A stretch of DNA of 64,000 bases from Microgenomates group bacterium Gr01-1014_7 (GCA_007376405.1 VMGD01000004.1:8960-72959); one strand, 5' to 3'. Counted from the stretch's first letter, positions 501-31,513 are shown. Program-made: numbers and translations. Notes: generated by a model from the sequence alone, not told the origin.

Positions 501-947
501 TTAAACTGGTACTTAATTGGTTTTATAATCTTTGGTTTATTGATAACTTATTTATTCGGCAGGCTTCAAGGAAGAAAGCCACAGGATATTCCAACAGATT
601 TAATTGATCTTTATCGCGGAGTGCAAGATATACCGGCCAGGGTTTTACAAGTTATTCAGGGTTCAATAAATCCGCAAAAAGGTCGGATGGCTGAGTTGTT
701 AACTTACGCGGAATTGCGTTATGATTACGACCGGATTATTCCTTTGGGTCAGCCAATTGATTTTATCGGTATTAAAAACGGAGACCGGATAGATTTTATA
801 GAAGTTAAATCCGGAATAACTCATCTCTTGACAGATGAGGAAAAACACATTAAAAACCTAATTACTGCCGGAAGAGTGAATTTCAGGTTAATTAAAATAA
901 CGGAAGATGAAATCCAAAAGTTTGTTTCTGCCAGAAAGGAGACTTAA
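492..947 (+). CDS. membrane-anchored PD-(D/E)xK nuclease-fold protein (YraN/Hjc-like)
   Basis: An N-terminal hydrophobic helix (NWYLIGFIIFGLLITYLF) is followed by C-terminal GQPIDFIGIKNGDRIDFIEVKSG, matching the D...(D/E)xK core of the YraN/UPF0102 and Hjc resolvase families. A GTG start lies inside a DnaA box. There is no clear RBS. Confidence 0.45.
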   Translation: MDNLNWYLIGFIIFGLLITYLFGRLQGRKPQDIPTDLIDLYRGVQDIPARVLQVIQGSINPQKGRMAELLTYAELRYDYDRIIPLGQPIDFIGIKNGDRIDFIEVKSGITHLLTDEEKHIKNLITAGRVNFRLIKITEDEIQKFVSARKET

Positions 948-948
948 G

Positions 949-2049
949 ATGAAATTTTCTATTTTACAGCAAGACTTGCTTCCTTCTTTGCAAGCAGCAG
1001 CCAGGTCAACCGGTACCAGGTCCACCCTGCCTGTTTTAGATAATGTCTTGCTCTCCGTCGAGGGGAAAAAACTAAAAATAGCTGCCACCAATTTGGAAAT
1101 AGGAGTAATTAAGTTTGTTCCTGTCCAGAATGGGGTTGACGGGGAAATGACTGTTCCTGCCAAAACTTTGGTTGAACTAATTGCCGGGCTGAGCCAGCTA
1201 GAGGTAACTTTTGAGTCCGAAGGTGAAGGGTTGGCTATAACCGGAGGCAGCTTTAAGGCCTCAGTAAATGGCATTCCTGCCGCTGAGTTCCCTGTGATCC
1301 CCCTGTCTTCCGGAAAAGGTATTAGTTTTCCCAAAGACGCGTTTTTAACTTCCTCACAGATTCTTTTTGCCGCGGCAGTGGATGAAGGAAGACCAGTGCT
1401 TACCGGTATTCTGACAGAAGTTAAGGACTCAAAGCTGGACTTTGTGGCAACAGACGGATTCAGACTTGCTCATAGACAAGTCCCCCTGCCTAAAGCCTCA
1501 GCCCCTCTTAAAACCTTAATCCCCAAAAGAACATATGAGGAGGTCTTAAGGATTATTTCGGAGCAGGAGGTGCCGGAGGTAACCATAGCCACCTCGGAAA
1601 ATCAAAATCAGGCCGTATTCACTCTTGGGGGCACCATTGTTTCCTCAAGATTGATTGAAGGTCAATTCCCTGCCTGGGAGAAAATTGTACCGACAGAGAT
1701 TGTCGGCCGGGCTCTGGTTGAAAAAGAAGCTTTGTTAAAAGCCATCAAGCTGGCAGCGGTTTTTGCCAGAGGTGAAGCTAATATTTTGGTTTTAACCACC
1801 AGAAAAGGGATTTTGAATATAAAGTCCTCAGCCAAAGAAGTAGGCAGTCAGGAAAACGAGATTGAAGGTAATATCGAAGGAGAGCAGCTTCAAATTGCTT
1901 TTAACACCAAATTTTTACAGGACGCTGTAACTAATATTCCAACATCCCAACTTAGTTTTGAGTTTTCAGGGGCATTATCAGCAGCCTTAATTAAACCAAT
2001 TGGGGAAGAGGGGTTGGAATATATTGTCATGCCGGTCAGGTTGAGTTAA
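949..2049 (+). CDS. dnaN: DNA polymerase III beta sliding clamp
   Basis: MKFSILQQDLLPSLQ... is a typical DnaN N-terminus and the product is about 367 aa. An RBS AAGGAG lies at 936-941. The position immediately after dnaA/oriC is canonical. Confidence 0.9.
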   Translation: MKFSILQQDLLPSLQAAARSTGTRSTLPVLDNVLLSVEGKKLKIAATNLEIGVIKFVPVQNGVDGEMTVPAKTLVELIAGLSQLEVTFESEGEGLAITGGSFKASVNGIPAAEFPVIPLSSGKGISFPKDAFLTSSQILFAAAVDEGRPVLTGILTEVKDSKLDFVATDGFRLAHRQVPLPKASAPLKTLIPKRTYEEVLRIISEQEVPEVTIATSENQNQAVFTLGGTIVSSRLIEGQFPAWEKIVPTEIVGRALVEKEALLKAIKLAAVFARGEANILVLTTRKGILNIKSSAKEVGSQENEIEGNIEGEQLQIAFNTKFLQDAVTNIPTSQLSFEFSGALSAALIKPIGEEGLEYIVMPVRLS

Positions 2050-2492
2050 ACCCCCCGGTACTGAACCGTCTTAATGTGAAATATCTTCTCTTCTCCCCAT
2101 CTGCCTAATCCGTCAAACTTAGTCTCAGTTCCGATAAAAAGAGTATAAGTTTGGCCCAGTTCATAAGGCTTTAAGGGGATTATTTTGGCAGTTTTGCGGT
2201 CGGATGAGAGCTCAATATTAAAGTCTATTTTTGGCTCAATTCGCAGTTTAAACTCACCCTTATTTTCTAAGGGCCTGTTAAAAGTAATTTCTATGGTTTG
2301 GGTTGCAGAAACTATAGCTTCTTCCAGCGGGTCAGGTTTGGTTGAAACTATCCGGGGTTTATCATCTTGGGTTTGCGGAGGGGGTGTATTTTCAGGCTGC
2401 GGAGCAGCCCCGGGCTTTTGTAATATAACAGTTATAACCATTATAAAAATTATAATAAGTATGGTTAAAATTATGGTTGTTTTTTGCTTCAT
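2046..2492 (-). CDS. small secreted/TM-anchored protein (N-terminal TM, Pro-rich linker, beta-rich domain)
   Basis: N-terminal helix TIILTILIIIFIMVITVIL, then a PQPENTPPPQTQ linker. It lies in an operon with the T4SS-like genes. Confidence 0.5.
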   Translation of the reverse strand: MKQKTTIILTILIIIFIMVITVILQKPGAAPQPENTPPPQTQDDKPRIVSTKPDPLEEAIVSATQTIEITFNRPLENKGEFKLRIEPKIDFNIELSSDRKTAKIIPLKPYELGQTYTLFIGTETKFDGLGRWGEEKIFHIKTVQYRGV

Positions 2493-2944
2493 TGTTTTGC
2501 CAGCTCAAGGTATTCTATTTTTTGCGTGTTACTATCTATACCAGCGGATTTCATGGCATTTAAACTTTCCTCTTTTGCCTGGGTTAGTTGTTGTTCTTTT
2601 GGGATACTACTGCTTGTTAAATAATAAAGCTCGACTATTAAAGTATCAGTTTCAGGATTATAACTTATAAAATAGTTACCTGCTTTAATTGGAAGTTTAA
2701 GAACCCAAGGTTTGGATTTTATAAATTCCTCACGCGTTTGTCCATATTCTTCCTGATTTAATTTCTCACCTTCAAGTCCTTGAGGAATTATAATGGACGG
2801 TTTTGGAGAGGGGGTGAAAACCTGGATAGGACCAGGCTTTGGTTCTAAAGAAGGTTTACGCACTCCAAAGTAAATAATAGATACTCCTACAATTAAAACT
2901 AGTAAGATAGTGATAGTTGTAATTATTATCTCTGCCTTTTTCAT
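2489..2944 (-). CDS. small TM-anchored exported protein
   Basis: N-terminal helix IIITTITILLVLIVGVSIIYF followed by a Pro-rich linker. Its start overlaps the neighbouring gene, indicating translational coupling. Confidence 0.5.
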   Translation of the reverse strand: MKKAEIIITTITILLVLIVGVSIIYFGVRKPSLEPKPGPIQVFTPSPKPSIIIPQGLEGEKLNQEEYGQTREEFIKSKPWVLKLPIKAGNYFISYNPETDTLIVELYYLTSSSIPKEQQLTQAKEESLNAMKSAGIDSNTQKIEYLELAKQ

Positions 2945-2946
2945 AG

Positions 2947-4509
2947 CTATCGTGTTGCCTGGCCGAAACCAGTAATGTTATACCTCCTTGCGGTAGTTTG
3001 TGCATTGATCGCTCGATGATTTTGTACAGATACTACATCCTCTGTTACGACATTATTTGCGTCGTATGTCCTAATTACTCCATTTCCTTCTTGGCTTACT
3101 TCTACTGATCTAATTAGGCTGGCATGCTGATTCCCGATACCTTCAAAAAATATTACATCTCCGGGTCTTAGTTGCTCAACAGCACTGCTTGCCTGCAACA
3201 GTTGATAGCCAGCGGTGTTTGCAAAAAATGATTTCATGGTTAGGACAGCGGCATGCGAACCTCTGCTTAAACCAAAATATCCCGCTCTGTTGTAGGCATC
3301 CACAATTAAAAAGGTACACCAATAGTATACACCTGGTTCATCTCGTTTGTTATGGTATAGACGATCTTCCAAAGAAGGACTATTGGGGTTTAATGGGTAA
3401 AGTAAGGGAGTAATTTGTGATGCTATGCTAACAATAGCAGTCAGACTGCTCGAAACAGTAACACTGGGATCTCTAAATGGAATAGTATAGTCCAAAGTAC
3501 CGGCAGCACCCCCTCCGCCGGGGCTGAGTCCCCCTATAAACCCTGTTAAAAAAATCAGGCCAAATGCCCCCAGAAACAAAAATAATACTTTTTTATTCCC
3601 TCCCGGCAGCTTTAATCCTCCTCTGCCCACAATATTGGAAAGCCTTGCTCCCGCGTTAATTGTGCCGTTTAACGCTTTCATCCCCCAGCTGTTCCAGGTT
3701 GCCCCTCCTACTCCTCCGAATAATGCGCCCAAAGGGCTGCCTGTCAGTACTCCTCCGGCAAAACCTCCCAGCGCGGTTCTTGTAATAGGAAGCACATTAG
3801 TTTTTAGGAAAATTCCTGCTTTGGAAGCGATACTGCTCCCCAGTGATCTTATACCCATAGGAATTTTTGGTGCTTGAAATCTTCTGCCTGCGGTTTTTGC
3901 TGCAGAGGGTTCTTCGGCTGCTTTAGGGTTTAAGTTATAGGTAAGGTTACCTGACAGACCGGAGCTGGAACCAGTGGTAGAGCTGACAGCGGGATTTGTC
4001 ATTGTTACTTTAGCAGCAGCGCCGCTGGATGTAGTTTGGCCGGGAGTAGGCTCTGGAGCACGGGGAACATTGCGGATGATCCTGCGGGGGGTAGCAGCAG
4101 CCCCGCCGGCCATTCCCGGAAAAGGCATCCCCCCGGCCATAGAGCTTGCAGGTTCTCCAACAGGAACTTGTTCAGTAGTCCCCCCCTCTTGTCCGCCCGG
4201 CTGCTCGCTAACAGTTCCAACTGCCACCGGTTTTTCTTCTAAAGCTTCTGTCAGCTCAACCCGACCCTCTTTAAACTCGCCTGAAAGAAATTTCCGGTTA
4301 CCCTCATTTCTTAAATACTCTCTTAAATAATTAAAAAAGACATTATCATCTTTGAATTTATCTCCCTGAAATTGCGGGAGCTCACGCAGCAACTGAAGAC
4401 AGTGAGTCTTACGCTCGGGTGTTAAGCCTTGAATTTGTTCTAAGCGTTGGCCGCTTACTTTGATTGCTGAAAAAAAGGTTTTTAAGTCCTGTATTTCCTG
4501 AATAGTCAT
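2947..4509 (-). CDS. CHAP-domain peptidoglycan hydrolase with Gly/Pro-rich linker and single TM (VirB1-functional analogue of Gram-positive T4SS)
   Basis: The C-terminus carries ..YYWCTFLIVDAYNRAG.. (catalytic Cys) and ..GNQHASLIRSVE.. (His), typical of CHAP amidases/peptidases. A TM helix VLFLFLGAFGLIFLTGFIGGL is present. The gene is adjacent to VirB4. Confidence 0.7.
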   Translation of the reverse strand: MTIQEIQDLKTFFSAIKVSGQRLEQIQGLTPERKTHCLQLLRELPQFQGDKFKDDNVFFNYLREYLRNEGNRKFLSGEFKEGRVELTEALEEKPVAVGTVSEQPGGQEGGTTEQVPVGEPASSMAGGMPFPGMAGGAAATPRRIIRNVPRAPEPTPGQTTSSGAAAKVTMTNPAVSSTTGSSSGLSGNLTYNLNPKAAEEPSAAKTAGRRFQAPKIPMGIRSLGSSIASKAGIFLKTNVLPITRTALGGFAGGVLTGSPLGALFGGVGGATWNSWGMKALNGTINAGARLSNIVGRGGLKLPGGNKKVLFLFLGAFGLIFLTGFIGGLSPGGGGAAGTLDYTIPFRDPSVTVSSSLTAIVSIASQITPLLYPLNPNSPSLEDRLYHNKRDEPGVYYWCTFLIVDAYNRAGYFGLSRGSHAAVLTMKSFFANTAGYQLLQASSAVEQLRPGDVIFFEGIGNQHASLIRSVEVSQEGNGVIRTYDANNVVTEDVVSVQNHRAINAQTTARRYNITGFGQATR

Positions 4510-4524
4510 AAATTTAGTTTACCA

Positions 4525-6291
4525 TCAAACACTTTGACGGGCCAGGATTTCTTCTGGACTGGAAGTAATCAGCTGATGTTCAAAAGGTGCTGCTACCACC
4601 CTCATGGCCACGTGAGTATTACCGGCAAAAAAGAGACCCTGTCCAACCCCTGCGGAAAGAAGCAGTCTCTGTTCTCCTTCGGATAAATCAAACTCCTGGG
4701 CTAAAAGGTCAATAGAGACAGGAGCCTGTTTTAAAAGAACCTGAATGGAGGAATTGGAAATAATCTCTTTACCCCGCTCGGTTGCCAGAAAATCTTCTAC
4801 ATCCTGGGTGATGGTGGTTAAACCCAGATAATACTTGCGCGCTCTTTTGGCCAAATCTACCAGGAATTCGGCAGAATCCGGGTTTCTCATTAAATACCAG
4901 GCTTCATCCACGATCATAATTCTTTTTTTCAATTTAGTGCGGATTTTAGTCCAGACGAAGTCCAGAATCATATGAATTGCTAAGGGTCTAAGTTGATCCG
5001 GCAAGTCACGAACCGAAAAAACAGTAAAGGAGTTACTGATATTAATAGTTGATTGAGAAGAAAAGATGCCAATCAGCGATCCTTTGATAAATCTCTCAAG
5101 CCTGGCTGCAAGTTCCATAGCTGCCGGTTCTTCCATCCCGACTAAAACTTTATATAAATCCTCCATTAAAGGTGGGCCTGAGACAGGGTTTATCTGGGTT
5201 TTCGGGTCATCGGTAATGCCTTTTTGCTGGTAGGTTAGTTTTAGCGCCCGATCCAGAATTGCTCCCTCAGTGGCAGTTAAATTTCCCAATATAAGTTTTA
5301 AGAAAGCTGTTAAAGAGAGAATCTTGCGGCCCAGCTCATTTTCCCCCGGCACTACTTCGGCAGACATATCAAAAGGGTTAATTTTAGCAGGAGAGGAGGG
5401 AGAGAAATTAATAAACTCTCCGCCAACAGCTTCAGCCAAAGGCAAATACTCCTGCTCCGGGTCAATCACCAAAACATCGGTCCCAAACATCAGTGATCGT
5501 AGTGCCTCTAGTTTTACAAGATAGCTTTTTCCGGCTCCGCTTTTAGCAAATACAACCGAGTTAAAGTTCTCTAAAGTAAACCTGTCAAATAAAATTAAAG
5601 AATCATTATGTTCATTAATGCCATACATTATTCCCTCGTTGGCTGTTAACTCCGATGAAGCAAAAGGAAAGGTTGTAGCAAGCGAAGTTGTATCCATGTT
5701 ATGAGTTAAATTTAAAAGGTCCGCACCCAAAGGCAGACTGGATTTAAACCCGTCTTCCATTTGCAAGCTGACAGCTCTTGCGGTCATAGACAGCGAAGCC
5801 AGGGTTGATTCAACCAGTTTGCAGGTGTTATGCAATTCTTCTTTGGATGCGCTCGGCACAGTAACATAAAGAGAAAACTGGAAAAATCTCTCCACTCCTC
5901 TAACCAGCTGGTCCTGCAAACCCTGGGCATCTTCCAAAGCCACTTCAACTGCAGGATCAATAGCCCTGCCCCGTTCAAGATCGGTTTGTATGGTTGCCTG
6001 CATCTCGGCAATTTTTCTTTTTAATTCGTCCAGAACTCCGCCTGATTCGGAGGGGTAAATAAACATGGAAATTAAAAGAGAATGATCAAAAGAGACCAGT
6101 GGTTCAAGCCAGTTTGATTCAACAAAGCGGGGATAATTTGACACAAAATAGGTTCTAAAAAGCCGGCCGTCAATCCTCAGATTATCAAAGTCAACCTCAA
6201 TTTCGGAAGGAGCCAGGGTATCCTCCAGAGTTAACTGAGGTCTAGTATTATCTTGAACTTTTGGTTTTTTAAATAAGTTAGGTAATTTCAT
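4525..6291 (-). CDS. virB4: VirB4/TrbE/CagE-family T4SS ATPase
   Basis: Walker A FAKSGAGKSYLV, Walker B IMIVDEAWYLM, and a 588-aa product with an N-terminal VirB4-type domain. It is clustered with PrgI-like and CHAP genes. Confidence 0.75.
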   Translation of the reverse strand: MKLPNLFKKPKVQDNTRPQLTLEDTLAPSEIEVDFDNLRIDGRLFRTYFVSNYPRFVESNWLEPLVSFDHSLLISMFIYPSESGGVLDELKRKIAEMQATIQTDLERGRAIDPAVEVALEDAQGLQDQLVRGVERFFQFSLYVTVPSASKEELHNTCKLVESTLASLSMTARAVSLQMEDGFKSSLPLGADLLNLTHNMDTTSLATTFPFASSELTANEGIMYGINEHNDSLILFDRFTLENFNSVVFAKSGAGKSYLVKLEALRSLMFGTDVLVIDPEQEYLPLAEAVGGEFINFSPSSPAKINPFDMSAEVVPGENELGRKILSLTAFLKLILGNLTATEGAILDRALKLTYQQKGITDDPKTQINPVSGPPLMEDLYKVLVGMEEPAAMELAARLERFIKGSLIGIFSSQSTINISNSFTVFSVRDLPDQLRPLAIHMILDFVWTKIRTKLKKRIMIVDEAWYLMRNPDSAEFLVDLAKRARKYYLGLTTITQDVEDFLATERGKEIISNSSIQVLLKQAPVSIDLLAQEFDLSEGEQRLLLSAGVGQGLFFAGNTHVAMRVVAAPFEHQLITSSPEEILARQSV

Positions 6292-6383
6292 AGAGCTTTA
6301 TTAATTTTCAATTTTCAATGTTTTAAACATTAAGTCATTAAAAATTCATTGTAAATTGGTCATTGGTTATTGAAAATTTCATA

Positions 6384-7112
6384 TTATTCCTCCAACTCCT
6401 CCACTACAAAGGGATGAGTTCGGGAGGGTTGACTAACTAAAGGTGATGTTTCTTGAGCTTGTGGTGAGGGAACCGTGTTTGGTTTAGATTGGGGGATCGG
6501 CTGCGGTTTTTTTAAACTGACCTCTATTTTTTCCGTTTCTCCCGCAGCAGGTATTGTTTCTACAAAGTAGCCGTTATAGATATTATAAAAAAGTTCAATC
6601 AGTTTCTGGTTATCTAACTGGGTAGCTCGAAGTCCAACTCTGTTTAGCTGTCTTATTATCTGATCCCGTCTTGGCAAAAGCACGGTTTTGATTTTTTGCT
6701 CCAGGCTTTCTTTTGAAGCAGTGAGGCCGAGTTCCAAAGAATAAAGCGGTATTACCAGATAAAATTTTTTGTCCAAAACATCATTTTCTTTGATGGTTAC
6801 CCGAATAAATTGTCGGTAGTTGCCAATCATTCTGGACAGTAGCGGATTAGTTTGCGCTTTTTGGGCTTTATCTAAAAGAGTTAAGTAAGAACTGATATTT
6901 AATCTTTCCGAATAAACAAAAATCTGAATGCTGAAACTTAACGAATTAAGCATTTGGGCAAAGGTAAAAATTATACCCATTTGTTCCCGCTCGGATAGAA
7001 GCCCAAAATTAACAGCGGAAACTTGTAAAATCAAAACACCGCCACCGTTTTTAAGAAGGACAAGATCATCTTTTACATCCGATATTAATAAATGCTGTTG
7101 TGTAGTATTCAT
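6384..7112 (-). CDS. hypothetical T4SS-associated protein (possibly a split N-terminal VirB4-type domain)
   Basis: 242-aa soluble protein lying between the PrgI-like gene and virB4 in the same orientation. No recognisable catalytic motif. Confidence 0.4.
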   Translation of the reverse strand: MNTTQQHLLISDVKDDLVLLKNGGGVLILQVSAVNFGLLSEREQMGIIFTFAQMLNSLSFSIQIFVYSERLNISSYLTLLDKAQKAQTNPLLSRMIGNYRQFIRVTIKENDVLDKKFYLVIPLYSLELGLTASKESLEQKIKTVLLPRRDQIIRQLNRVGLRATQLDNQKLIELFYNIYNGYFVETIPAAGETEKIEVSLKKPQPIPQSKPNTVPSPQAQETSPLVSQPSRTHPFVVEELEE

Positions 7113-7113
7113 A

Positions 7114-7190
7114 TAGTTAGGGTATAGGGTTTAGGGGTCAGGGTTTAGTTTTAATTTTAACTATACCCTATACCCTAGTCGCTATACCCT
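7114..7190. repeat. inverted repeat of the GGGTATAGGG/CCCTATACCC family (hairpin)
   Basis: TAGTTAGGGTATAGGGTTTAGGGGTCAGGGTTTAG (7114-7148) is complementary to CTATACCCTATACCCTAG..CTATACCCT (7161-7190). A related copy is at 34094-34129. Confidence 0.55.
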
Positions 7191-8260
7191 TATTTTGCCG
7201 TTATCAAGAGTGGAGGTAAAACCTCCCCGGACAGTTCTATCTGCAAAACATCAAAGGTAAAATTCTCTTTTTCCAGTTCCAGAGTATATGTGCCGTTAGG
7301 CAAAGGGGTTGAGCCTGTAAATTGACCCAGTTTATTAGTCTTCAGGGCTCTAACAGGCAGTCCTTCTTTATCATGAATAACAGCAATTACTCCTTCCAGA
7401 TAAGATCCGGATTTAGCTTTGACAATACCGTTTATAACATTAGGGAAAGTAGTCAGGGCTACTTGGGTTTGTTTAACTTTTACGGGAATAACTACTTTTA
7501 TTTTTTCTTTTTCCGGCTCCTTTGCCTGTGGCTTTTGGGGTTCTGTTACTTGTTCCATTTGTTCTCTGACTGCTGAAGCTTGATTAACCAGGGTTTGCAG
7601 GTTGCTCATGACCTGGTTGATCTGCTGGCTGTAGTCAACAGGTATGGGAGTTGGTTGAGTAGCCTCTGTTTTAATTTGATTTAGCGCTCGCTCGGTTTGA
7701 ACAATTCTAAACTGCAGGTTTTGGGCCTGGCGCGCCAGATCAACAGTTTTAGCCAGTTCATCAGCAGTAGGAAATGGAGCAACCGGTAGGGGTTGGGGCG
7801 GAGGGGTTGCGGGGGGTGGCTTATTTTCTGCTGGGGCCTGATGGGGGTTTAGACCGGAAAGATACAGCACCAGCCGGCTGTTAAACAGCGAATCTTCTTT
7901 AAAACTCTTATCATTTTTTTTCCAGGCCCTCCTAGTGGGAGAATAGATAGCCTTAAAAAAGGCTGCCACCCAATGATCAAGTGGTCTTGAACTGATGGGT
8001 AAAAAGGCAAAGGCTACCCCTAATAGAGCTGAAATTACAATCAGCGGCCAGGTCAGGAAAGGATATTTTGCTGCAAAAAAGACAAAAATGCCGTAGGCAA
8101 TACTTGAACCTGCTGCCAGATATAAAAACTGCTTTAAAGTCATGTCTCCCACCAGACGGAATTGGAAACTGGTCACATTTTGCGGAATAGGATGCGGGTT
8201 CATAGCACTATCTATATACAATGTGAAAAAAATATTGGCAAGCACCACAAAAGGGATCAT
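7190..8260 (-). CDS. PrgI/VirB3-like T4SS membrane protein with Pro-rich linker and C-terminal beta-sandwich domain
   Basis: N-terminal ..IPQNVTSFQFRLVGDMTLKQFLYLAAGSSIAYGIFVFF.. matches the PrgI-family signature (dispensable prefix, then an FxxRQFL TM hairpin). Confidence 0.6.
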   Translation of the reverse strand: MIPFVVLANIFFTLYIDSAMNPHPIPQNVTSFQFRLVGDMTLKQFLYLAAGSSIAYGIFVFFAAKYPFLTWPLIVISALLGVAFAFLPISSRPLDHWVAAFFKAIYSPTRRAWKKNDKSFKEDSLFNSRLVLYLSGLNPHQAPAENKPPPATPPPQPLPVAPFPTADELAKTVDLARQAQNLQFRIVQTERALNQIKTEATQPTPIPVDYSQQINQVMSNLQTLVNQASAVREQMEQVTEPQKPQAKEPEKEKIKVVIPVKVKQTQVALTTFPNVINGIVKAKSGSYLEGVIAVIHDKEGLPVRALKTNKLGQFTGSTPLPNGTYTLELEKENFTFDVLQIELSGEVLPPLLITAK

Positions 8261-8319
8261 TATGGGACAATTAATATCTACCCCAACATCTTGTGGGTTG
8301 ACTTTAATACTTTTCGTGT

Positions 8320-8500
8320 TATTCTAGGTAGTGTGGTGTGCCAGTCCGCCTTTGGCGGACCAAGGCGCAAAAAGGGAATGCTGTGTAAATCAGCAGCTGT
8401 GCCGCAACTGTTAGCCCTGAGCGTAGTCGAAGGGTAAAGCCAGGAGACCGACCACAATTTATCCTGTACCGTCTGGTACGGGGATCCCGATTCAGGAGTA
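8320..8500 (+). other. GC-rich structured intergenic element (possible ncRNA or 5' leader)
   Basis: Local GC is far above the flanks. There is a perfect hairpin GTCCGCC-UUUG-GGCGGAC, a terminal helix GUGUGGU...ACCACA, and a hairpin CUGUACC-GUCU-GGUACGG. Confidence 0.25.
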
Positions 8501-8502: not shown

Positions 8503-9720
8503 ATGCCGGTTTTAGAACTCGAAAGATATTTACCAACTTCAATACAATCTGCCGAAATTGCTACTCCACAGCTTGTTGTAGTACCAGAAATAAATACTTC
8601 AGAGCTCGAAAATGACTTAGATGAAGTGGATAAACTCCAAAGAGAATTTAATAGAGCCTTAGGCATTGATACTGATGGAGAAGGTATAAAAAATTACAAT
8701 CCTGTTTTGGCAAGGTGGAGATACGAGAAACTTACAACTGATGAGCAAAGGCTGCAGTTTAGAGAACATGAAACAAAGCAGGTAGAGACTGCTTTAAGGG
8801 AAAGGCATGATAGCGCGGAAAGTAGTCTAATATATACAATTGATGAAAATCAAAGACTAAGAAATAGTAAGATTTTTCCTACAGAACCGTTTGCTCAAGG
8901 TATACAAAGAGGTGTTTTGTATCTCAGGCGACAAGGTTCCCCGGATTCTGAACGCGAAGAGAAAGAGGTGGAAGGGTTTCTAAAAGTGGAGCGGGCGATG
9001 GTTAATCCGGAAACTCCGATTAACACAAAAATGATGGTTATTTCTCCTCCAAGTAGACTCAACGGCTCAATTTATGTGAAAAATTTTGTAGATTTTTATG
9101 AACTGGCGGAGGTTAATGGAAAAAGAGTGGTTAAAATGACCAGGTTTGCCTCAAGTGCCAGCTATGGAGAGGCAACTGATGCTTATCTTCTCTCTCATCC
9201 AACCAGAATAGATCCTGACAACAGAAGTGTTCATGATGTGTTTAGGGATAGATTTGAAGGTAAAAAAGATGCTTTGGAAGAAAATAGAATGCAAGAGGTT
9301 TTAACAGGTAGCAAAGGACGCATCAGGTTCTTTATTGACGCTTTATGTCAAGGCATAGCTGATGCTGAAAGTATTGCCGTTGCCTTGAATGCTGTATTAA
9401 ATGGAGCAGATTTAATCAAAAAAGGATTTAACAGCTTTAAAGAAAAAATAGTGCTGCCTGTTTTTAGAAGCATCAGAGAAGAAATAGACTGGCTGGGGAG
9501 GCTGCCGGTTGAGGCAATTGCCGCAGCATGCGGTATATCCGGGGGGTTTGGCATAAGAGGGAAAGGTATTAAGTCAATTAGCAGTATTATTTCAACTGGC
9601 TTTTCATCTGTAAACATAGAAGGTGCTGATTATCAGCTTGGTAGCTGCGTTGTTTGTAAAAGGGGGAATGTATGGATTGGGGGATGTAGTATTTGCACAA
9701 GCTGTGAAGAAAATATGTGA
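8503..9720 (+). CDS. hypothetical protein with C-terminal Cys-cluster zinc ribbon
   Basis: 405-aa ORF with an RBS context. The C-terminus carries GSCVVCKRGNVWIGGCSICTSCE. Confidence 0.5.
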   Translation: MPVLELERYLPTSIQSAEIATPQLVVVPEINTSELENDLDEVDKLQREFNRALGIDTDGEGIKNYNPVLARWRYEKLTTDEQRLQFREHETKQVETALRERHDSAESSLIYTIDENQRLRNSKIFPTEPFAQGIQRGVLYLRRQGSPDSEREEKEVEGFLKVERAMVNPETPINTKMMVISPPSRLNGSIYVKNFVDFYELAEVNGKRVVKMTRFASSASYGEATDAYLLSHPTRIDPDNRSVHDVFRDRFEGKKDALEENRMQEVLTGSKGRIRFFIDALCQGIADAESIAVALNAVLNGADLIKKGFNSFKEKIVLPVFRSIREEIDWLGRLPVEAIAAACGISGGFGIRGKGIKSISSIISTGFSSVNIEGADYQLGSCVVCKRGNVWIGGCSICTSCEENM

Positions 9721-13387: not shown

Positions 13388-14716
13388 ATGAAATTTTTAG
13401 CCAACCGAGTTTCCGGGACTGAAGGATGCATTTTTGCTCTTTCTCTTATCCAAGAGGTAGTTAAAACCTGCAATCAAAGAAATAAATATTACTACACTTT
13501 TTATGCCACAGACATCAATACTATTACCAACCAATGTGGTGAGTGGATAAGAGAGGATGAAAACAAAAGTATTGCCCAGCAAATCATGAGTGATGCTAAA
13601 TTAGATAATCTAAATTATTTTAAAAAACTGGAGAAAACAGTTAAAAAAGAAGCTTTGGAATTTAAAAAATACTCGATAAATCTTTTAGGCCAACTCTCTC
13701 CTACTATCTCTGATAAAAAGCTTATTCAAAGTTACAATAGGTTTATCAAAAAATATATTTACTATTATGGACCAGGAATTATAACATTTTTGTATGAATC
13801 AATTATTTCAGATTGGTTATATTTATCTTTATCAAAAAAATATGGAAATGCCACTGAAATTATAAGTAAGCTTCTGCAATCAGATTATCAAAGCTTTTTA
13901 ATGGTTTCAGAGAAGCTGCTTAAAGAAAAACAAATTAAAAAATATCTTAAAGATTTTTTCTTTATGGGTACTACTTACTTTGATGCTCCCATACTTGATG
14001 AGGCCCAAGTTTTAGAAAAAGCAAAAGAGTTGGATGAACATAAAATAAAAACCGAAAGTGTACAAAACCTTAAATTCAAGCTTGATGAGGAAGAGGTGAT
14101 TATAGCAAAGCTTCTAAAAATATCTGCTGTTATAAGAGACTTGAGAAAATATACCAATCTAATTGGAGGATATACCATATTCAGATTTTTGGATGAGGCA
14201 GTTAGAAGAAAAAAGATAAATAGAAATTTAGCAAAAAGAATGTTTTGGTTTGAATTTGAAAAGCTGTTTTTAAATCCTAAAGAAATGCTTCAAACTCTGC
14301 ATAAAAGAAAATTTGTTTCCATTGTTTTTTCGCATGGAAAGGTGAACTATTTTGAGAAAAAAGTCTTGCAAGATAAAACAAAATTTTCATTTAAGGGAAT
14401 TTTAAAGGGCACGCCTGCTTCCAAGGGCACTATTTCCGGAATAGTAAAAATAGTTATGGCCCAAAAAGATTTTCCAGGGTTTAAAAAAGGGCAAATTCTG
14501 GTTGCGGAAATGACCAGGCCGGATTATTTACCTGTAATGAGAAAGGCTGCAGCTATCATTACAGACGAGGGAGGGTTAACCTGTCATGCTGCAATTGTAG
14601 CCAGAGAGCTGGGGATTCCCTGTATTGTGGGGACAAGGATTGCAACCCGGAGTTTAAAAAACGGAGATAAAATCAATTTGGATGCTGAAAAAGGTACAAT
14701 TAGGGTAATTTCATGA
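13388..14716 (+). CDS. PEP-utilizer phosphohistidine (swivel) domain protein, paralog 1
   Basis: C-terminal ..AIITDEGGLTCHAAIVARELGIPCIVGT.. matches the PEP-utilizers mobile domain. The N-terminal ~340 aa are a helical domain of unknown function. Confidence 0.7.
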   Translation: MKFLANRVSGTEGCIFALSLIQEVVKTCNQRNKYYYTFYATDINTITNQCGEWIREDENKSIAQQIMSDAKLDNLNYFKKLEKTVKKEALEFKKYSINLLGQLSPTISDKKLIQSYNRFIKKYIYYYGPGIITFLYESIISDWLYLSLSKKYGNATEIISKLLQSDYQSFLMVSEKLLKEKQIKKYLKDFFFMGTTYFDAPILDEAQVLEKAKELDEHKIKTESVQNLKFKLDEEEVIIAKLLKISAVIRDLRKYTNLIGGYTIFRFLDEAVRRKKINRNLAKRMFWFEFEKLFLNPKEMLQTLHKRKFVSIVFSHGKVNYFEKKVLQDKTKFSFKGILKGTPASKGTISGIVKIVMAQKDFPGFKKGQILVAEMTRPDYLPVMRKAAAIITDEGGLTCHAAIVARELGIPCIVGTRIATRSLKNGDKINLDAEKGTIRVIS

Positions 14717-14811
14717 TTAAACATAAGTTTTTGGAGTCTTTCAAAAAGAATAGGCCTCTCTTTTGATATAATATAGGTGTAATTTGTTCTGTTCAAACAA
14801 GAAATTAAATT

Positions 14812-15270
14812 ATGAAAATGGAATTAAGAAATTTGATTGAGGATTATCTTAAAAAAGCAAAAATGCTTCAGGTTGCTACGGCCAAAGAAAATCAGTCTTG
14901 GGCTTGTACTGTCTATTTTGCCTTTGATGAGAAATTAAATATTTATTGGATCTCTGAACCCACTCGTCGTCACTCAGAGGAAATAAGAAACAACGACAAA
15001 GTTGCCGGAGTAATTGTTCTTCCACATACACCCGGAGACAAAGTACGAGGAATTCAATTTCAAGGAACTGCAAGAGAGCTAACCGATAGAGATGAGGCAG
15101 TCGCAGGTATGAAGTATTATACAGAGCGTTTTGGTATGGAATCAAAGCGTGTAAATACGATTCTTGATGGTACAGATGGTCACGTTTGTTACAAAATTAC
15201 TCCAAGCCTTTACGTCCTATTCGATGAGGCAAATTTCCCAGATAATCCAAGACAGGAGTATAAACTATGA
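14812..15270 (+). CDS. pyridoxamine 5'-phosphate oxidase-like FMN-binding protein
   Basis: ..MLQVATAKENQSWACTVYFAFDEKLNIYWISEPTRRHSEEI.. is typical of the PNPOx-like split-barrel fold. Confidence 0.6.
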   Translation: MKMELRNLIEDYLKKAKMLQVATAKENQSWACTVYFAFDEKLNIYWISEPTRRHSEEIRNNDKVAGVIVLPHTPGDKVRGIQFQGTARELTDRDEAVAGMKYYTERFGMESKRVNTILDGTDGHVCYKITPSLYVLFDEANFPDNPRQEYKL

Positions 15271-16004
15271 AATTAAAAGATAAAGTTGTTCTTGTAACTG
15301 GAGGTAGTAGTGGAATCGGCAAAGCTATTGTTATGGCCTTCGCTAATGAAGGTTGTAATATAGTTTTTACATATAACTCGAAGAAAAAAGAATCAGAAGA
15401 TATTGTTAAAGAAGTTGAACAGCTAGGAATTAAAACATTAGCGGTCAAAGTCGATATGCACTCAGAGGAAGATATCCAAAAACTTTTTGACCAAATTAAA
15501 GAGAAATTTAAAACTTTGGATATTTTAGTTAATAGCGCAGGAATAAATAGACCAAGAGATCTTTTTGATCTTAAGGTTTGGAGAGAAGTTTTTGAAATTA
15601 ATTTGTTTTCAGTTGTCCTTTGTACTGAAAAAGCTGTGGGGTTAATGGAAAATGGAGGTAAGATTCTTAACGTTTCCTCAATTTATGCTGAAGGAAAAGC
15701 TTGTTGGAAAGGCCTTCCTGCTTATGGAGCATCGAAAGCTGCAATAAGCCATTTTACACAAACTCTGGCGAAAAACTTAGCACCTAAAATTTTAGTAAAT
15801 GCAATTGCACCAGGGTATGTAAAAACTCCGCTCTGGATAGACACAACTGAAGAAGATTTTGAAAATAGTGGTAAAGAACAATTAATTAAAAGGATGATTA
15901 TGCCTGAAGAAATTGCTGAAATGGCTGTCGCAATTGTTAAAAACGATGCCATGACAGGTGAAGTTGTTGTGATCGATGGTGGGATAAGTCTAAAAACGGT
16001 TTAG
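15267..16004 (+). CDS. short-chain dehydrogenase/reductase (FabG-like)
   Basis: VLVTGGSSGIGKAI Rossmann motif, NSAG, and YGASKAA (YxxxK). Confidence 0.85.
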   Translation: MKLKDKVVLVTGGSSGIGKAIVMAFANEGCNIVFTYNSKKKESEDIVKEVEQLGIKTLAVKVDMHSEEDIQKLFDQIKEKFKTLDILVNSAGINRPRDLFDLKVWREVFEINLFSVVLCTEKAVGLMENGGKILNVSSIYAEGKACWKGLPAYGASKAAISHFTQTLAKNLAPKILVNAIAPGYVKTPLWIDTTEEDFENSGKEQLIKRMIMPEEIAEMAVAIVKNDAMTGEVVVIDGGISLKTV

Positions 16005-16084
16005 ATTTGAATAGACCTCACATTATAAACTCTACCCGATACTTTGGAGAAAAAGATATATTTGTTGCTCCTGTTTTATACCAA

Positions 16085-16519
16085 TTAGTGTCCCAACAAG
16101 ATGTCATTCCGAGCGATTAGCGAGGAATCTTCCACGATAGGATTAAATAATATTTCCATATAAATCCTTAAGCTCCGGATTAAATTCTATAATTAATTTA
16201 TCTTTCTTTTTTCTTGACCAGCCCTTAATCTGTTTTTCTCTTTCTATGGCAGAGTTTGGGTCTTCAAATACTTCAAAATATAAAAGATCATGGAGGGAAT
16301 ATCTTTTGGTAAAGCCATCAGCTAAATTATTTTTATGCTCGTATATTCTTTTTACTAAATTACCTGTTACTCCTGTATATAGAGTTGTTCTTCTGAAATT
16401 ACTTAAAATGTAGACAAAGTAATACCTGGGAGCCATATAAATCATTATACTGGAAGATTGCCACGTCAGTCGCTTCGCTCCTTCCTCGCAATGACAATTC
16501 TTATACTTTAGTGTCCCAA
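16085..16519. mobile_element. GIY-YIG gene cassette flanked by imperfect inverted repeats and an 11-12 bp direct repeat
   Basis: Direct repeat TTAGTGTCCCAA at 16085-16096 and 16508-16519. The inward-facing inverted repeats are TGTCATTCCGAGCG at 16103-16116 and, on the reverse strand, TGTCATTGCGAGG at 16477-16489. Both flanks also share ..AATCTTCCA. Confidence 0.4.
16143..16445 (-). CDS. GIY-YIG nuclease family protein (UPF0213-like)
   Basis: YYFVYILSNFRRTTLYTGVTGNLVKRIYEHK matches the GIY-YIG motif. Confidence 0.75.
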   Translation of the reverse strand: MIYMAPRYYFVYILSNFRRTTLYTGVTGNLVKRIYEHKNNLADGFTKRYSLHDLLYFEVFEDPNSAIEREKQIKGWSRKKKDKLIIEFNPELKDLYGNII

Positions 16520-16701
16520 ATCTTAAAAATCTGTGCCTAAAACCCCCTCCTTATCATAAATGGATGCTAATGAACTACCCCACAGCAAGCTGACGGGGTA
16601 TAATAAACAAATTAACCTAATTTCTAATTGACCTAAATAATTTAAAATTTAGTCATTGGGATTTGTTTAAAAATTAGTAATTAGAAATTAGAAATTTAAA
16701 T

Positions 16702-18132
16702 ATGGACATTAAACAAAAATTTGTAGAAGCATTCAAAAGAATCTGGTATATACAGGGCTTTAATGCTTATCCCCTGTTTTTAAACAGGGCCGGGATTAGC
16801 GGGTTTGAAATGGAGAAAGTTTTAGGCTATGGCTACTCCATTATACTTAATAGTTACAGAAACGGTTATTGTGAAATGCATTATTTAAGCGCTGATTTAA
16901 AAAGAATTTGGGAAAGGGTAAAAGAAAACCTTAAAAAAGATTCAAAATATGTTGAAAAAATTGCCAGCAAATACTTTAAGATTTTTGAAAAACACGAGAA
17001 ATTATTCAAGCAAATGGATAAACTTAATTTAAGCAAATTAGAAGAGCCAGAATTAATTCAGTTGCTCAAAAACTGCTCCCAAGCCTCAATTGATGCTGTT
17101 GGAGTGGCTCACATTGTTGACCCGATTGGCATTGGCAGTGAAGTAGAATTTAAACAAAAACTGCTTTCGGAAATTAAAAATAAGGATAAATTCAATGAAT
17201 ATTTCTCAATTTTAACCACCCCTTTGAAACTGTCTTTCCTGGGCCGGGAAGAGGAAGATTTGCGAAAAATTGGAAACTTAACCGGGATAAAAAGAAAAAA
17301 AGCGCTAAAGCTCCATTTAAAAAAATATTCCTGGGTAAATAACAGCTATGCCGGGCCAACTGAAATTACTTTAACAAGTTTGTCAAGACGTTTGAATTTA
17401 TTGAATAAAGAAAAAGTAAAACCTAAACTCCTTAAAACTGAACTGATAAATGAGCTATCCTTAAGCAAAGAGATAAAAGATTTAATTGCAGTAATTGACT
17501 TTTCAACCATCTGGCAGGACAGGAGGAAAAAGAATGTCCTAATTTCTATCTCTTATTTTAGTAAAGTGCTGGAGGAAGTAAGCAAAAGAATAAGCATCCC
17601 TTCCAAATTACTTTATTTTTTTGGAATTGAAGATTTTAACAGCATAAATAGTTTTAAAGATATAAAAAAGTTTAAGGGGGAGCTGGAAGAAAGAACGAAG
17701 GGAGTATTTTTCCTGCTTGATCAGGGGCAAGAATTTGAAGTTTGCGGGCAAGATTATCAAACTCTTTATAAAATTTATAGTGAGGTTGAAAAAGGGCAGA
17801 GCAGACCAGTAGAAGACATACATGGATCAGTTGCCAACAGGGGTACAGCACTTGGCAAAGTTGTAATATGTAAAGATTTAGAGTCAATTCAAAAAGTAGA
17901 GACAGGTAATGTGATTGTAGCCTCAATGACCAGACCTGAATTTATGCCGGCTTTAAAAAAAGCTTCTGCTATTGTAACTGATGAGGGAGGGGTAACATGT
18001 CATGCCGCGATTCTATCAAGAGAACTGGGCATTCCCGCAATTATTGGCACTAAAATTGCCACCAGGATTTTACGGGACGGGATGAAAGTGGAGGTAAGGG
18101 CAAACCATGGAATTGTCAGAATCATTAGCTGA
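16702..18132 (+). CDS. PEP-utilizer phosphohistidine (swivel) domain protein, paralog 2
   Basis: C-terminal ..AIVTDEGGVTCHAAILSRELGIPAIIGT.. Confidence 0.7.
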   Translation: MDIKQKFVEAFKRIWYIQGFNAYPLFLNRAGISGFEMEKVLGYGYSIILNSYRNGYCEMHYLSADLKRIWERVKENLKKDSKYVEKIASKYFKIFEKHEKLFKQMDKLNLSKLEEPELIQLLKNCSQASIDAVGVAHIVDPIGIGSEVEFKQKLLSEIKNKDKFNEYFSILTTPLKLSFLGREEEDLRKIGNLTGIKRKKALKLHLKKYSWVNNSYAGPTEITLTSLSRRLNLLNKEKVKPKLLKTELINELSLSKEIKDLIAVIDFSTIWQDRRKKNVLISISYFSKVLEEVSKRISIPSKLLYFFGIEDFNSINSFKDIKKFKGELEERTKGVFFLLDQGQEFEVCGQDYQTLYKIYSEVEKGQSRPVEDIHGSVANRGTALGKVVICKDLESIQKVETGNVIVASMTRPEFMPALKKASAIVTDEGGVTCHAAILSRELGIPAIIGTKIATRILRDGMKVEVRANHGIVRIIS

Positions 18133-19513
18133 TAAACCAATCTGGCGGACTCTGCTCACTCGTGAAGGAGTAGATATTACTACTCTGTCTGTATTAAATG
18201 AGGCCTTTTATAAATTTATTTGGGAATATACTAAGACGCGCGATTTAGCTTATTTTACCCATTTTAAGGATAGGGTATTTACCCACTATATTGCCTTGGA
18301 TCATAAAGAAGTAGGACGCTCTCTTAGGTTCAAATATTTTCCCAATCAAGAGGTAATAAAAAAGCTTTACTCAAAAGGCCTGGTAATTTTAAAAAAAGCC
18401 AAAAAAGATGATGTAACTTTAAGTAAAATATCTTCTCCTGGTTTTTCACAATTAAAAGAACTGTTAGCGGATTTTTATCAGGGATACCGGGAAATTAATT
18501 TTGTCTACAGCATTGCCGGCTGGCTGGCTATTGAGGCCTGGCAGAGCGATTTTGAGGAGTTACTGGAAAAATTAATCCGGCACAGTAATTTAACCGGCCA
18601 ATCCGAAAGAATCAAAGCTTCTGTTTATAAACCATGGAAAAAAACAGCCTTGCCCCAAATCCAGGAAAAACAATCCTTAGGTATTTCTCCTCGTAAACTG
18701 GCAGGGCAATACCAGTTTTTAAGAAGCTGGACATTAATTTGGTATAAACCAATTACAGTTAGTTGGATCAGGAACTTGGCAGTAGGGAATCAGGTTAAGC
18801 AAGAAGTCTATACCAAACAGCAGTTAAAAGAAATGCTCAAGCCCAACAAGCAAGAGTGGGAGATGATTGAGCTTACTCCATACCTGACCTTTTTTAAAGA
18901 CTGGAGAGATGATTTAAGAAGAGCTTATGTTTATAACTGGTCTTTTCTTTTTGACAAAATTGCCAAAAAATTTAATATTTCCCGGGAAGATTTAGGTTAC
19001 CTGACGTTTGATGAAATTAAAAAAGCTTTGTATAATGAAAAAATTCCCCTGCATCTTATTAAAGAAAGAAAAATAAATGGCTGTTTCATAGCCTTTGATT
19101 TAAAAACGAAAAAAATTCAGGCAATTAAGCTTTCCAAAGTTTATAGCCATGCCATGTCCCTGGCAAAAAAGTTAAGTAATAACAATGTAGTTTTGGGAAC
19201 AGTGGCCCAGACCGGAGTAGTTCAGGGCCATGTTAAAATTATCACAGGCTTTCATGATATTAAGAAAGTTCAAAAAGGTGAAATCCTGGTTGCTAATACC
19301 ACTCACCCCAATTATCTTCCGGCCATGCAAAAAGCCGCGGCTTTTATAACTAATGAGGGCGGAGTGATTAGCCACGCGGCAATTGTGGCCAGGGAAATGA
19401 AAAAGCCCTGTATTGTCGGAACAAAAAACGCCACTTTAATTTTACATGACGGAGATTTGGTGAAAGTTGATGCAAATGCGGGTAAAGTGATAATTTTAAA
19501 GAAAGCAGGGTAA
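18107..19513 (+). CDS. PEP-utilizer phosphohistidine (swivel) domain protein, paralog 3
   Basis: C-terminal ..AFITNEGGVISHAAIVAREMKKPCIVGT.. The start may lie a few codons downstream, since it overlaps the upstream gene by 26 nt. Confidence 0.7.
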   Translation: MELSESLADKPIWRTLLTREGVDITTLSVLNEAFYKFIWEYTKTRDLAYFTHFKDRVFTHYIALDHKEVGRSLRFKYFPNQEVIKKLYSKGLVILKKAKKDDVTLSKISSPGFSQLKELLADFYQGYREINFVYSIAGWLAIEAWQSDFEELLEKLIRHSNLTGQSERIKASVYKPWKKTALPQIQEKQSLGISPRKLAGQYQFLRSWTLIWYKPITVSWIRNLAVGNQVKQEVYTKQQLKEMLKPNKQEWEMIELTPYLTFFKDWRDDLRRAYVYNWSFLFDKIAKKFNISREDLGYLTFDEIKKALYNEKIPLHLIKERKINGCFIAFDLKTKKIQAIKLSKVYSHAMSLAKKLSNNNVVLGTVAQTGVVQGHVKIITGFHDIKKVQKGEILVANTTHPNYLPAMQKAAAFITNEGGVISHAAIVAREMKKPCIVGTKNATLILHDGDLVKVDANAGKVIILKKAG

Positions 19514-20464
19514 ATGTTTACTAAAAATTTTACTGAAATTACAAAGGAAGATACTAATATTGCCGGAGGCAAAGGGGCTTCTTTGGGAGAAATGACCGGG
19601 GCCGGGATTCCTATTCCTCCCGGATTTGTAATTTTAACTTATGGCTTTGACTGTCTTTTGCATTCCAACCAGCTGGTTTCGGAAATAGATTCTGCGCTAC
19701 ATGGGGTAAACCATGAAGATGCAAATTCAGTAGAACAGGCATCAGAAAAAATTAAAGGCTTGATTTTAAATGCCAAAATCCCTCCAGATCTTGAAACAGA
19801 AATTCTTAATGCTTTTGAAAATTTAAACTGTGAATTTGTGGCTGTTAGATCTTCAGCCACAGCAGAGGATGGATCAAGCACTTCCTGGGCAGGAGAACTG
19901 GAATCTTTCCTTAATACCACCAAAGAAACTTTACTGGAAAATGTCAAAAAATGCTGGTCCTCACTTTTTACCCCCAGAGCAATTTTTTACCGGTTTGAAA
20001 AAAAATTACATGAAACCCCTGTTTCAGTAGCTGTTGTTATCCAGAAAATGGTTAATAGTGAAGTTTCCGGAGTTGCTTTTTCTGTCCATCCCGTAACTGA
20101 GGATAGAAACCAACTGATAATTGAGGCGGGCCTTGGACTGGGAGAGGCAATAGTTTCCGGATCTTTAACTCCTGATTCTTATATAATTGACAAACAAGAT
20201 TTTTCTATAATTGATATTAGTATTGCTGAACAGGAAAGGAAAATGGTCAAAAAGATAAACGGAGGAAATGAATGGATTGATGTACCAGAAAGTGAAAGAA
20301 GCTTACAAAAACTTAATCCTGAACAAATTATTGAGCTTGCAAGGCTGGTTGTACAAATTGAAAACCATTATGGCTTTCCGGTTGATGTGGAATGGGCAAA
20401 AGAGCAGAAAAGATTTTTTATTACCCAATCCAGACCGATCACCACTCTAACCTCCAGACCCTAA
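19514..20464 (+). CDS. standalone PEP synthase/PPDK N-terminal ATP-grasp nucleotide-binding domain protein
   Basis: TKEDTNIAGGKGASLGEMTGAGIPIPPGFVI, VRSSATAEDGSSTSWAGELESF and DVEWAKEQKRFFITQSRPIT align along the whole PpsA N-domain. The ATG follows the upstream stop directly. Confidence 0.8.
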   Translation: MFTKNFTEITKEDTNIAGGKGASLGEMTGAGIPIPPGFVILTYGFDCLLHSNQLVSEIDSALHGVNHEDANSVEQASEKIKGLILNAKIPPDLETEILNAFENLNCEFVAVRSSATAEDGSSTSWAGELESFLNTTKETLLENVKKCWSSLFTPRAIFYRFEKKLHETPVSVAVVIQKMVNSEVSGVAFSVHPVTEDRNQLIIEAGLGLGEAIVSGSLTPDSYIIDKQDFSIIDISIAEQERKMVKKINGGNEWIDVPESERSLQKLNPEQIIELARLVVQIENHYGFPVDVEWAKEQKRFFITQSRPITTLTSRP

Positions 20465-27201: not shown

Positions 27202-27239
27202 AATACTAATTAAAGCCCTTTTAATTAAAAAATGCAACC

Positions 27240-27476
27240 CTATTTTACTTTATCCAGTAATTCAAAATATCTATCTCTGGAAATTCCTGCTGTAGTTAAG
27301 TTAGTGCGAATATGTGTGACAGCAACTTGATGGGGACTGATTTTAATTACAACTGGTCGCATAATCCCTGGTTTTGTCATGGAGATATGATCCCCTTTAG
27401 TTCTGGAAACTTGGAATCCCTCATGTTCAAAAATCTGTACTAATTTCTTATAGTGGATTGGAACAATTTTTGGCAT
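27240..27476 (-). CDS. hicA: HicA-like toxin (YcfA family)
   Basis: 78 aa with a GDHISMTKPG-type motif. Immediately downstream of the HicB-like gene. Confidence 0.55.
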   Translation of the reverse strand: MPKIVPIHYKKLVQIFEHEGFQVSRTKGDHISMTKPGIMRPVVIKISPHQVAVTHIRTNLTTAGISRDRYFELLDKVK

Positions 27477-29954: not shown

Positions 29955-29995
29955 GATACTTAATACATAATACTTAATACTCTTGTTGGGGTCAA

Positions 29996-30451: not shown

Positions 30452-30466
30452 GCCAGCAGTTTGGCT

Positions 30467-30823: not shown

Positions 30824-30826
30824 AAT

Positions 30827-31494: not shown

Positions 31495-31513
31495 GATTTA
31501 TGATTTACGAATG
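31478..31513. repeat. direct repeat R1 flanking the four-helix-bundle gene
   Basis: ATAGATTTAAGATTCACGATTTA[TGATTTA]CGAAT. It pairs with R2 at 31882-31910. Confidence 0.6.

Follow-up and report, generated by a model that had tools for sequence, protein, structure and literature searches.

Six minus-strand genes at positions 2046-8260 of a 64,000-nucleotide stretch of DNA from Microgenomates group bacterium Gr01-1014_7 (GCA_007376405.1 VMGD01000004.1:8960-72959; the whole stretch is hereafter the window, and positions are counted from its first letter) very probably encode the membrane and energising module of a type IV secretion system (T4SS) of the Patescibacteria type, which is chromosomal, vertically inherited, derived from MPF-FATA machinery, and would serve host interaction rather than conjugation. 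According to its NCBI name, the source is a metagenome-assembled genome (MAG) belonging to the Candidate Phyla Radiation (CPR), also called Patescibacteria. An earlier interpretation made without database searches, here called the sequence-only reading, had proposed a minimal Gram-positive-type CPR T4SS devoid of a DNA-processing module. This proposal is borne out, as the organism is an ultra-small CPR bacterium, the PrgI-like and VirB4 proteins both score above family thresholds, and no relaxase, type IV coupling protein (T4CP), or integrase gene flanks the operon.

All six open reading frames (ORFs) of the sequence-only reading are present at exactly the coordinates it gave. In the order of transcription, they encode a PrgI/VirB3-like membrane protein of 356 amino acids (aa) (7190-8260), a TrsD-like VirB4 N-domain protein of 242 aa (6384-7112), a VirB4 ATPase fragment of 588 aa (4525-6291), a bitopic candidate cell-wall hydrolase of 520 aa (2947-4509), and two small transmembrane (TM)-anchored proteins, one with an alpha/beta domain (151 aa; 2489-2944) and one Ig-like of the Big_5 family (148 aa; 2046-2492). 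The distances between successive ORFs are 77, 92, 15, 2, and -4 bp, and this spacing fits a single operon. A consensus scan for promoters and terminators gave matches at chance level only. The operon converges with dnaN (beta clamp; 907-2049, plus strand), for which the Pfam DNA_pol3_beta domains were found on an identical contig, and the stop of the 148-aa gene overlaps that of dnaN by 4 bp. A 115-kb ENA contig encodes an identical protein set, as does a Logan contig, and the order of the flanking genes on the contig is rnpA-yidC-jag, followed further on by dnaA, a Holliday-resolvase-like endonuclease gene, dnaN, and the T4SS operon.

The VirB4 ATPase is divided over two genes. The 588-aa protein scores 383.9 bits against the NCBIfam model NF045971 (CD1110 family), above its curated cut-off of 325, as expected of the VirB4-class ATPase proposed earlier. 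It also aligns with the C-terminal domain of Thermoanaerobacter VirB4 (PDB 4AG5, E 1.9e-49), and in its translation the Walker motifs A (SGAGKS) and B (IVDEAW) are both intact. The protein contains the middle domain and the C-terminal P-loop domain, spanning only positions 177-733 of the 752 positions of NF045971, with the N-domain absent. The neighbouring 242-aa protein had been left without a function in the sequence-only reading, which proposed a comparison with the VirB4 N-domain; NCBIfam models and a fused relative now establish this homology. It aligns over its full length with TrsD/TraD (NF041427, E 6.5e-8), where 32.6 bits against a cut-off of 200 make it homologous to the family but not a member by the NCBI criterion, and it has a precomputed match to the TraC-like Pfam family PF26593. 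On the Mbov_0397 VirB4 model, the 242-aa protein occupies positions 110-277 (E 1.5e-6) and the 588-aa protein positions 290-893. In addition, a TrsD-like profile built from 26 homologues and run by HMMER against 1.84 billion representative proteins identified 2203 relatives, nearly all of them short proteins matching at their N-terminus. Among the 150 best of these matches, one protein (P0191, 787 aa) also carries P-loop domains; its residues 8-205 are 47% identical to the 242-aa protein and its residues 212-772 are 64% identical to the 588-aa protein. A sequence search of the PDB with the TrsD-like profile gave no match. Because the two proteins are colinear both on the Mbov_0397 model and on the fused P0191, they are, by these alignments, the two halves of one VirB4.

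A divided gene could also be a pseudogene or an assembly or frameshift artefact in a decaying locus, as the two ORFs are 92 bp apart and a fused version exists in P0191. However, in a comparison set of 80 Microgenomates genomes at species level (Daviesbacteria, Gottesmanbacteria, Amesbacteria, and Woesebacteria, one locus each), the TrsD-like protein and VirB4 are encoded by separate ORFs in all 80 independent species assemblies, and 1885 stand-alone homologues of the 242-aa protein were found at E ≤ 1e-3, so that the split is not an artefact. Furthermore, the N-terminal fragment has a conserved linker and tail motif of its own, the identical protein occurs on independent contigs, and VirB4 is strongly conserved with intact Walker motifs. 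Artefact or decay is refuted by these conservation data and can practically be dismissed. Inserts within VirB4 also occur: in a Gottesmanbacteria MAG (L068, 8193-11723) and an Amesbacteria MAG (L070, 7994-11605), the protein reaches about 1180-1200 aa through an intein-like insert that bears LAGLIDADG-type motifs and lies exactly within the P-loop of Walker A (GKS/... and GK/C..., with the slash at the insertion).

The 242-aa half of VirB4 is composed of an N-domain (residues 1-186), a variable proline-rich linker, and an invariant C-terminal tail, HPFVVEEL. Its C-terminus, encoded at 6384-6500, was compared with relatives P0138-P0287. The linker is of low complexity and varies from about 40 to 450 aa across relatives, and the tail is lineage-specific and nearly invariant, with HPFVVEEL(xDDYG) in a Daviesbacteria-like clade and LPPLPEI or LPPIAEI in another CPR group. 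This tail may serve as a docking peptide.

The first gene of the operon encodes a PrgI-family protein, as proposed in the sequence-only reading. Residues 24-111 match Pfam PrgI (PF12666, E 1.3e-7) with 32.5 bits, above the gathering score of 27, and hydropathy indicates two TM helices at about residues 45-91; Met20 is a possible start codon instead of Met1. The PrgI region is followed by the proline-rich linker noted earlier, by a helical stretch, and at the C-terminus by a beta-rich domain, for which the proposed beta-sandwich fold rests on a sub-threshold match of residues 276-335 to CarboxypepD_reg (E 1.2e-3). A PDB search with the protein gave no match. Its N- and C-terminal parts are found directly upstream of TrsD in 78-79 of the 80 loci, and the protein is a likely membrane anchor for VirB4.

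Downstream of VirB4, the 520-aa protein had been described as a TM-anchored CHAP peptidoglycan hydrolase; of this description, the anchor is confirmed and the family is not. The protein lacks an N-terminal signal peptide and has, by hydropathy, one TM helix (residues 308-326); it is therefore predicted to have an N-in, C-out topology with a cytoplasmic N-region (residues 1-307) and an extracytoplasmic C-domain, in which Cys398 and His462 (C62 and H126 of alignment A3) are invariant. No match to CHAP (PF05257) was obtained at E ≤ 0.1. There is a weak resemblance to NlpC/P60 (PF00877, gathering score 23), with sub-threshold scores of 13.8 bits (E 0.058) for the 520-aa protein and of 17.0 and 14.6 bits (E 0.0059 and 0.032) for the homologues P0129 and P0136, with the three matches falling on one and the same Cys-to-His stretch. 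Foldseek comparison of the low-confidence C-domain model with the PDB gave no match at E ≤ 1e-3, the top of the non-significant list being rich in MepS, staphopain, RipD, P60, Tse1, and CHAP endolysins, an enrichment that is suggestive only, and a PDB profile search with the C-domain likewise returned nothing significant. The CHAP label was consequently dropped on account of the missing PF05257 match, the weak AlphaFold2 model, and the non-significant Foldseek and PDB profile searches. The C-domain is most likely a papain-like Cys/His peptidase.

The low-complexity linker of the 520-aa protein swamped a homologue search, which gave only 17 matches. These have the N-terminal and TM part in common and exchange the C-terminal domain. 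In ten other Microgenomates, the gene following virB4 encodes Peptidase_M23 in three loci, Amidase_3 in one, and Peptidase_C39_2 in two, and a sub-threshold SLT domain lies beside M23 in one of the three M23 loci. Since the N-region is shared, the C-domains are swapped, and relatives carry M23, SLT, Amidase_3, or C39_2, the position after virB4 thus appears to be a slot for interchangeable peptidoglycan-hydrolase modules, analogous to VirB1.

The last two genes of the operon encode small proteins that each have one N-terminal TM segment by hydropathy, in agreement with the two TM-anchored exported proteins of the sequence-only reading. The 148-aa protein contains a Pfam Big_5 Ig-like domain (E 5.1e-7) and is encoded just before dnaN in 46 of the 80 loci. 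The 151-aa protein has only six homologues, is present in four of the 80 loci, and is a fast-evolving accessory. Its AlphaFold2 model has a pLDDT (predicted local distance difference test score) of 83.8 and displays a compact alpha-beta3-alpha-beta domain at residues 55-149, for which Foldseek found no PDB match below E 0.08. The protein was considered as the missing VirB8 (PrgL/TraM/TcpC-type) and rejected, as despite the good model Foldseek detected no NTF2 or VirB8 similarity.

The organisation of the operon is conserved across the Microgenomates, with the order PrgI, TrsD, VirB4 kept in 78-80 of the 80 loci and dnaN converging downstream of VirB4 in 64. Between VirB4 and dnaN, the spacer measures anything from -28 bp, where the hydrolase is missing altogether, to about 6 kb. 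The VirB4 of the window is 59-85% identical to the VirB4 proteins of the 80 species, and in 63 of 63 loci VirB4 identity exceeds that of DnaN (median 80% versus 64%). The operon is, on this comparison, a vertically inherited chromosomal core rather than a mobile element, because its synteny and position beside dnaN are conserved and VirB4 is more conserved than DnaN; the Walker A inteins of two VirB4 lineages are counted toward the same reading.

An ordinary integrative and conjugative element (ICE), or its remnant beside dnaN with relaxase and T4CP lost or situated just outside the window, would account for the fact that the VirB4, TrsD, and PrgI families stem from Gram-positive conjugative plasmids and ICEs, and a large serine recombinase is indeed encoded beside tRNA-Ser at 41.6-45 kb of the same window. 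However, that recombinase lies 33 kb from the operon, with the housekeeping genes smpB and tmRNA in between. Among ORFs of 110 aa or more, none in the window matched a relaxase or T4CP Pfam family, in agreement with the sequence-only reading, and none near the operon matched an integrase family, leaving the operon flanks free of all three. Relaxases are, moreover, rare in Patescibacteria (PMC12102498). The gene order and the dnaN-convergent position are the same in 64 of 80 species from several Microgenomates orders, and VirB4 outranks DnaN in conservation in 63 of 63 loci. The sequence-only reading had named an adjacent relaxase and oriT as the signs of such an element; the window contains no relaxase, and the position on the dnaN side is conserved. 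Because of this conserved synteny, the ICE is largely refuted and must be considered highly improbable.

The vertically inherited operon is situated close to the probable replication origin. Its placement beside dnaA and dnaN, as proposed earlier, was confirmed for both genes (dnaA 3' end at 102-344) and agrees with the dnaN convergence across the Microgenomates loci. Three perfect DnaA boxes (TTATCCACA) lie on the plus strand at 324-365, at the dnaA 3' end, and are the only perfect ones in the window; a second pair of DnaA boxes is found upstream of dnaA (L001, 17290-17308), and the GC-skew turn falls near dnaA and the box cluster. The cluster at 324-365 is the probable downstream half of oriC, which would be bipartite with the two box groups flanking dnaA. 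The operon is located 1.6-7.9 kb from this probable bipartite oriC (about 324-490) and is transcribed toward it. It is thus head-on to the replication fork in an arrangement convergent with dnaN that is kept in 64 of the 80 species, an orientation that is unusual for a highly conserved and presumably essential operon. The Holliday-resolvase-like endonuclease gene (492-947) lies between dnaA and dnaN and is kept there in 43 of the 80 loci. It has been considered that the VirB4 split may be a regulated-assembly device, in which the TrsD tail docks the ATPase or another T4SS part and gates the motor, and that the head-on position near the DnaA boxes may couple operon expression to replication initiation beyond gene dosage; this combined proposal is rather unlikely.

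Further T4SS genes are located at a distance from the operon. Six divergent VirB2-like T4SS pilin genes (29358-33432, minus strand) match Pfam PF18895 (E 2e-8 to 2e-10) as well as NCBIfam NF045849 (Mycoplasma ICE, Mbov_0395 pilin-like), forming an array at a distance of 21 kb from the operon. A polytopic membrane protein of 612 aa (25399-27237, minus strand), whose translation shows many hydrophobic helices, is a candidate VirB6 analogue. The VirB6/pilin locus that the sequence-only reading had placed about 17 kb away is therefore confirmed for the six PF18895 pilins, while the VirB6 identity is unconfirmed. The array is interrupted by a gene of the 23S_rRNA_IVP family (four-helix bundle; 31491-31898), and one of its 'pilins', extended considerably at the N-terminus, measures 494 aa. 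The array is separated from the VirB6 candidate by a gene with a Fic domain (28179-29366) and by a pair resembling HicA/HicB (27240-27740). On its other side, the candidate adjoins and converges with a gene (20644-25389, plus strand) for a highly charged 1581-aa protein, which has no obvious TM segment and matches no Pfam or NCBIfam family. This giant protein could be associated with the T4SS or be a substrate.

A system of this composition could also import DNA, like the competence-type T4SS ComB of H. pylori or the archaeal Ced system, and feed a nucleotide-auxotrophic cell. Uptake systems likewise lack a relaxase and a T4CP, CPR bacteria lack nucleotide synthesis according to the literature, and VirB4 has a weak NCBIfam match to CedB (E 1.4e-13), far below the cut-off. 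However, competence of Southlakia epibionticum requires type IV pili and ComEC, and deletion of comEC ends transformation and not viability, whereas the T4SS is essential (2025 review, PMC12857230, summarising Wang et al. 2023), and in the window neither comEC nor comF is found linked to the locus. A role in DNA import is consequently unlikely. Host interaction, by analogy, is the favoured role, because the homologous T4SS is essential in the saccharibacterium S. epibionticum; its genes SEML1_0006-0019 were found to be essential for the epibiotic growth of strain ML1, and no recognisable coupling or relaxase proteins are present in the locus (Wang et al. 2023, PMC10633639). The locus tags SEML1_0006-0019 put this T4SS near the chromosome start as well.

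Taken as a host-interaction T4SS, the parts may be inferred to work together as follows. The PrgI/VirB3-like protein would anchor the VirB4 motor at the cytoplasmic membrane, where the TrsD-like N-domain with its flexible tail and the 588-aa ATPase would presumably assemble into one functional VirB4. The membrane-anchored hydrolase, as an analogue of VirB1, would open the peptidoglycan locally with a catalytic module that differs by lineage, and the two small TM-anchored exported proteins, one Ig-like and one alpha/beta, would be lineage-specific accessories. Together with these operon products, the polytopic VirB6-like protein and the six pilins, encoded 17-25 kb away, would build a pilus or channel that may serve host-cell interaction through the transfer of protein or other macromolecules, and not conjugation.

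Several points weigh against this interpretation. A VirB8-like component was not found, as the 148-aa protein is a Big_5 protein and the 151-aa protein has no NTF2 fold match. For the hydrolase domain, no curated family scored above threshold, and the AlphaFold2 model, derived from a five-sequence alignment, is poor with a pLDDT of 57.9. The VirB6 candidate has only a weak Pfam TcpE match (E 0.0045) and no NCBIfam match. Finally, many VirD4-like genes of Patescibacteria are situated far from virB4 (PMC12102498), and the search for such genes here covered the 64-kb window.

Other features of the window lie apart from the T4SS. A cobalamin riboswitch (RF00174; 8317-8470, plus strand; 58.5 bits, gathering score 31.5), with an extended -10 promoter-like site (8298-8325) ahead of it, lies upstream of a 405-aa ORF (8503-9720, plus strand) that is divergent from the T4SS operon. 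The encoded protein, Cys-rich at its C-terminus, matched nothing in Pfam, NCBIfam, or the PDB, and a homologue is found at the same position in nine of the 80 Microgenomates loci; a B12-regulated gene of no assigned function is unusual in a CPR bacterium. At 13388-20464 (plus strand), three paralogues of about 440-476 aa, with only the C-terminal mobile domain of PEP-utilizers, are followed by a separate 316-aa PPDK_N (ATP-grasp) protein, and these genes look like a split or multiplied system of the phosphoenolpyruvate (PEP) synthase/PPDK type. The large serine recombinase mentioned above (1133 aa; 41576-44977, minus strand) lies directly against two tRNA-Ser genes and is accompanied by a Bro-N protein at 45100-45972, with tmRNA and smpB just upstream. 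An integrated element, phage-like or mobile, may occupy the region 41419-45972.

With regard to known systems, the locus closely resembles the T4SS described for Patescibacteria, which have been placed in the T4SS superfamily (PMC12857230). In a survey of 2,474 Patescibacteria virB4 genes, Quinonero-Coronel et al. (2025, PMC12102498) described a monophyletic VirB4 clade related to MPF-FATA, accompanied by TrsD and PrgI/VirB3 homologues, by arrays of VirB2-like pilins, most of all in Microgenomatia and Saccharimonadia, and by very few relaxases, with T4CP genes rarely linked to virB4 and with virB4 close to dnaA/dnaN in Paceibacteria and Microgenomatia specifically. The window shares with these systems the MPF-FATA-like VirB4, the adjacent TrsD, PrgI/VirB3, the divergent pilin arrays, the lack of a nearby relaxase or T4CP, the location on the dnaA/dnaN side, and the replacement of the canonical VirB1 by peptidase- or lysozyme-type genes downstream of virB4, and VirB6 is hard to recognise in both. 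The proximity to the origin, the missing relaxase, and the distant pilin array, which the sequence-only reading had called notable, were thus already published for Patescibacteria including Microgenomatia (PMC12102498, PMC10633639). As all its main elements are likewise published, the locus is a standard Microgenomates example, differing in no respect of kind from the Patescibacteria T4SS and representing no new kind of system. One figure does differ: the survey gives an association of VirB3 with virB4 of 22.6% in Microgenomatia, whereas here PrgI is directly upstream of TrsD in 78 of 80 loci, which suggests that the hidden Markov models of the survey under-detected PrgI or counted paralogues elsewhere.

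The conjugative T4SS that Gram-positive cocci carry on pGO1/pSK41 (TrsC-TrsD-TrsE-TrsG) and pIP501 (TraC-TraD-TraE-TraG) display the same order of VirB3-like protein, TrsD/TraD, VirB4 ATPase, and cell-wall hydrolase. These systems differ in being plasmid-borne, in having a relaxase and a T4CP, in lacking VirB2-like pilins, and in using a hydrolase with SLT and CHAP domains, and compared with their TrsD/TraD, the TrsD-like protein of the window adds the linker and tail motif and scores 32.6 bits, far below the cut-off of 200. The best VirB4 models come from CTn2/CD1110-type elements (383.9 bits) and the Mycoplasma ICE (Mbov_0395/0397; 255 bits for Mbov_0397), yet the VirB4 proteins of these mobile elements are single polypeptides that include the N-domain. 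Against this background, the present analysis adds direct evidence, through the fused relative P0191, that TrsD and the short VirB4 are one split VirB4, together with two features not discussed in PMC12102498, namely the conserved tail motifs of TrsD and the conserved head-on orientation toward oriC. It also adds an almost universal PrgI-TrsD adjacency in Microgenomates loci, a VirB4 more conserved than DnaN, and a modular hydrolase slot that would fill the place of the 'missing VirB1' noted for Microgenomatia. No T4SS other than that of the Patescibacteria is known to be essential to its own carrier.

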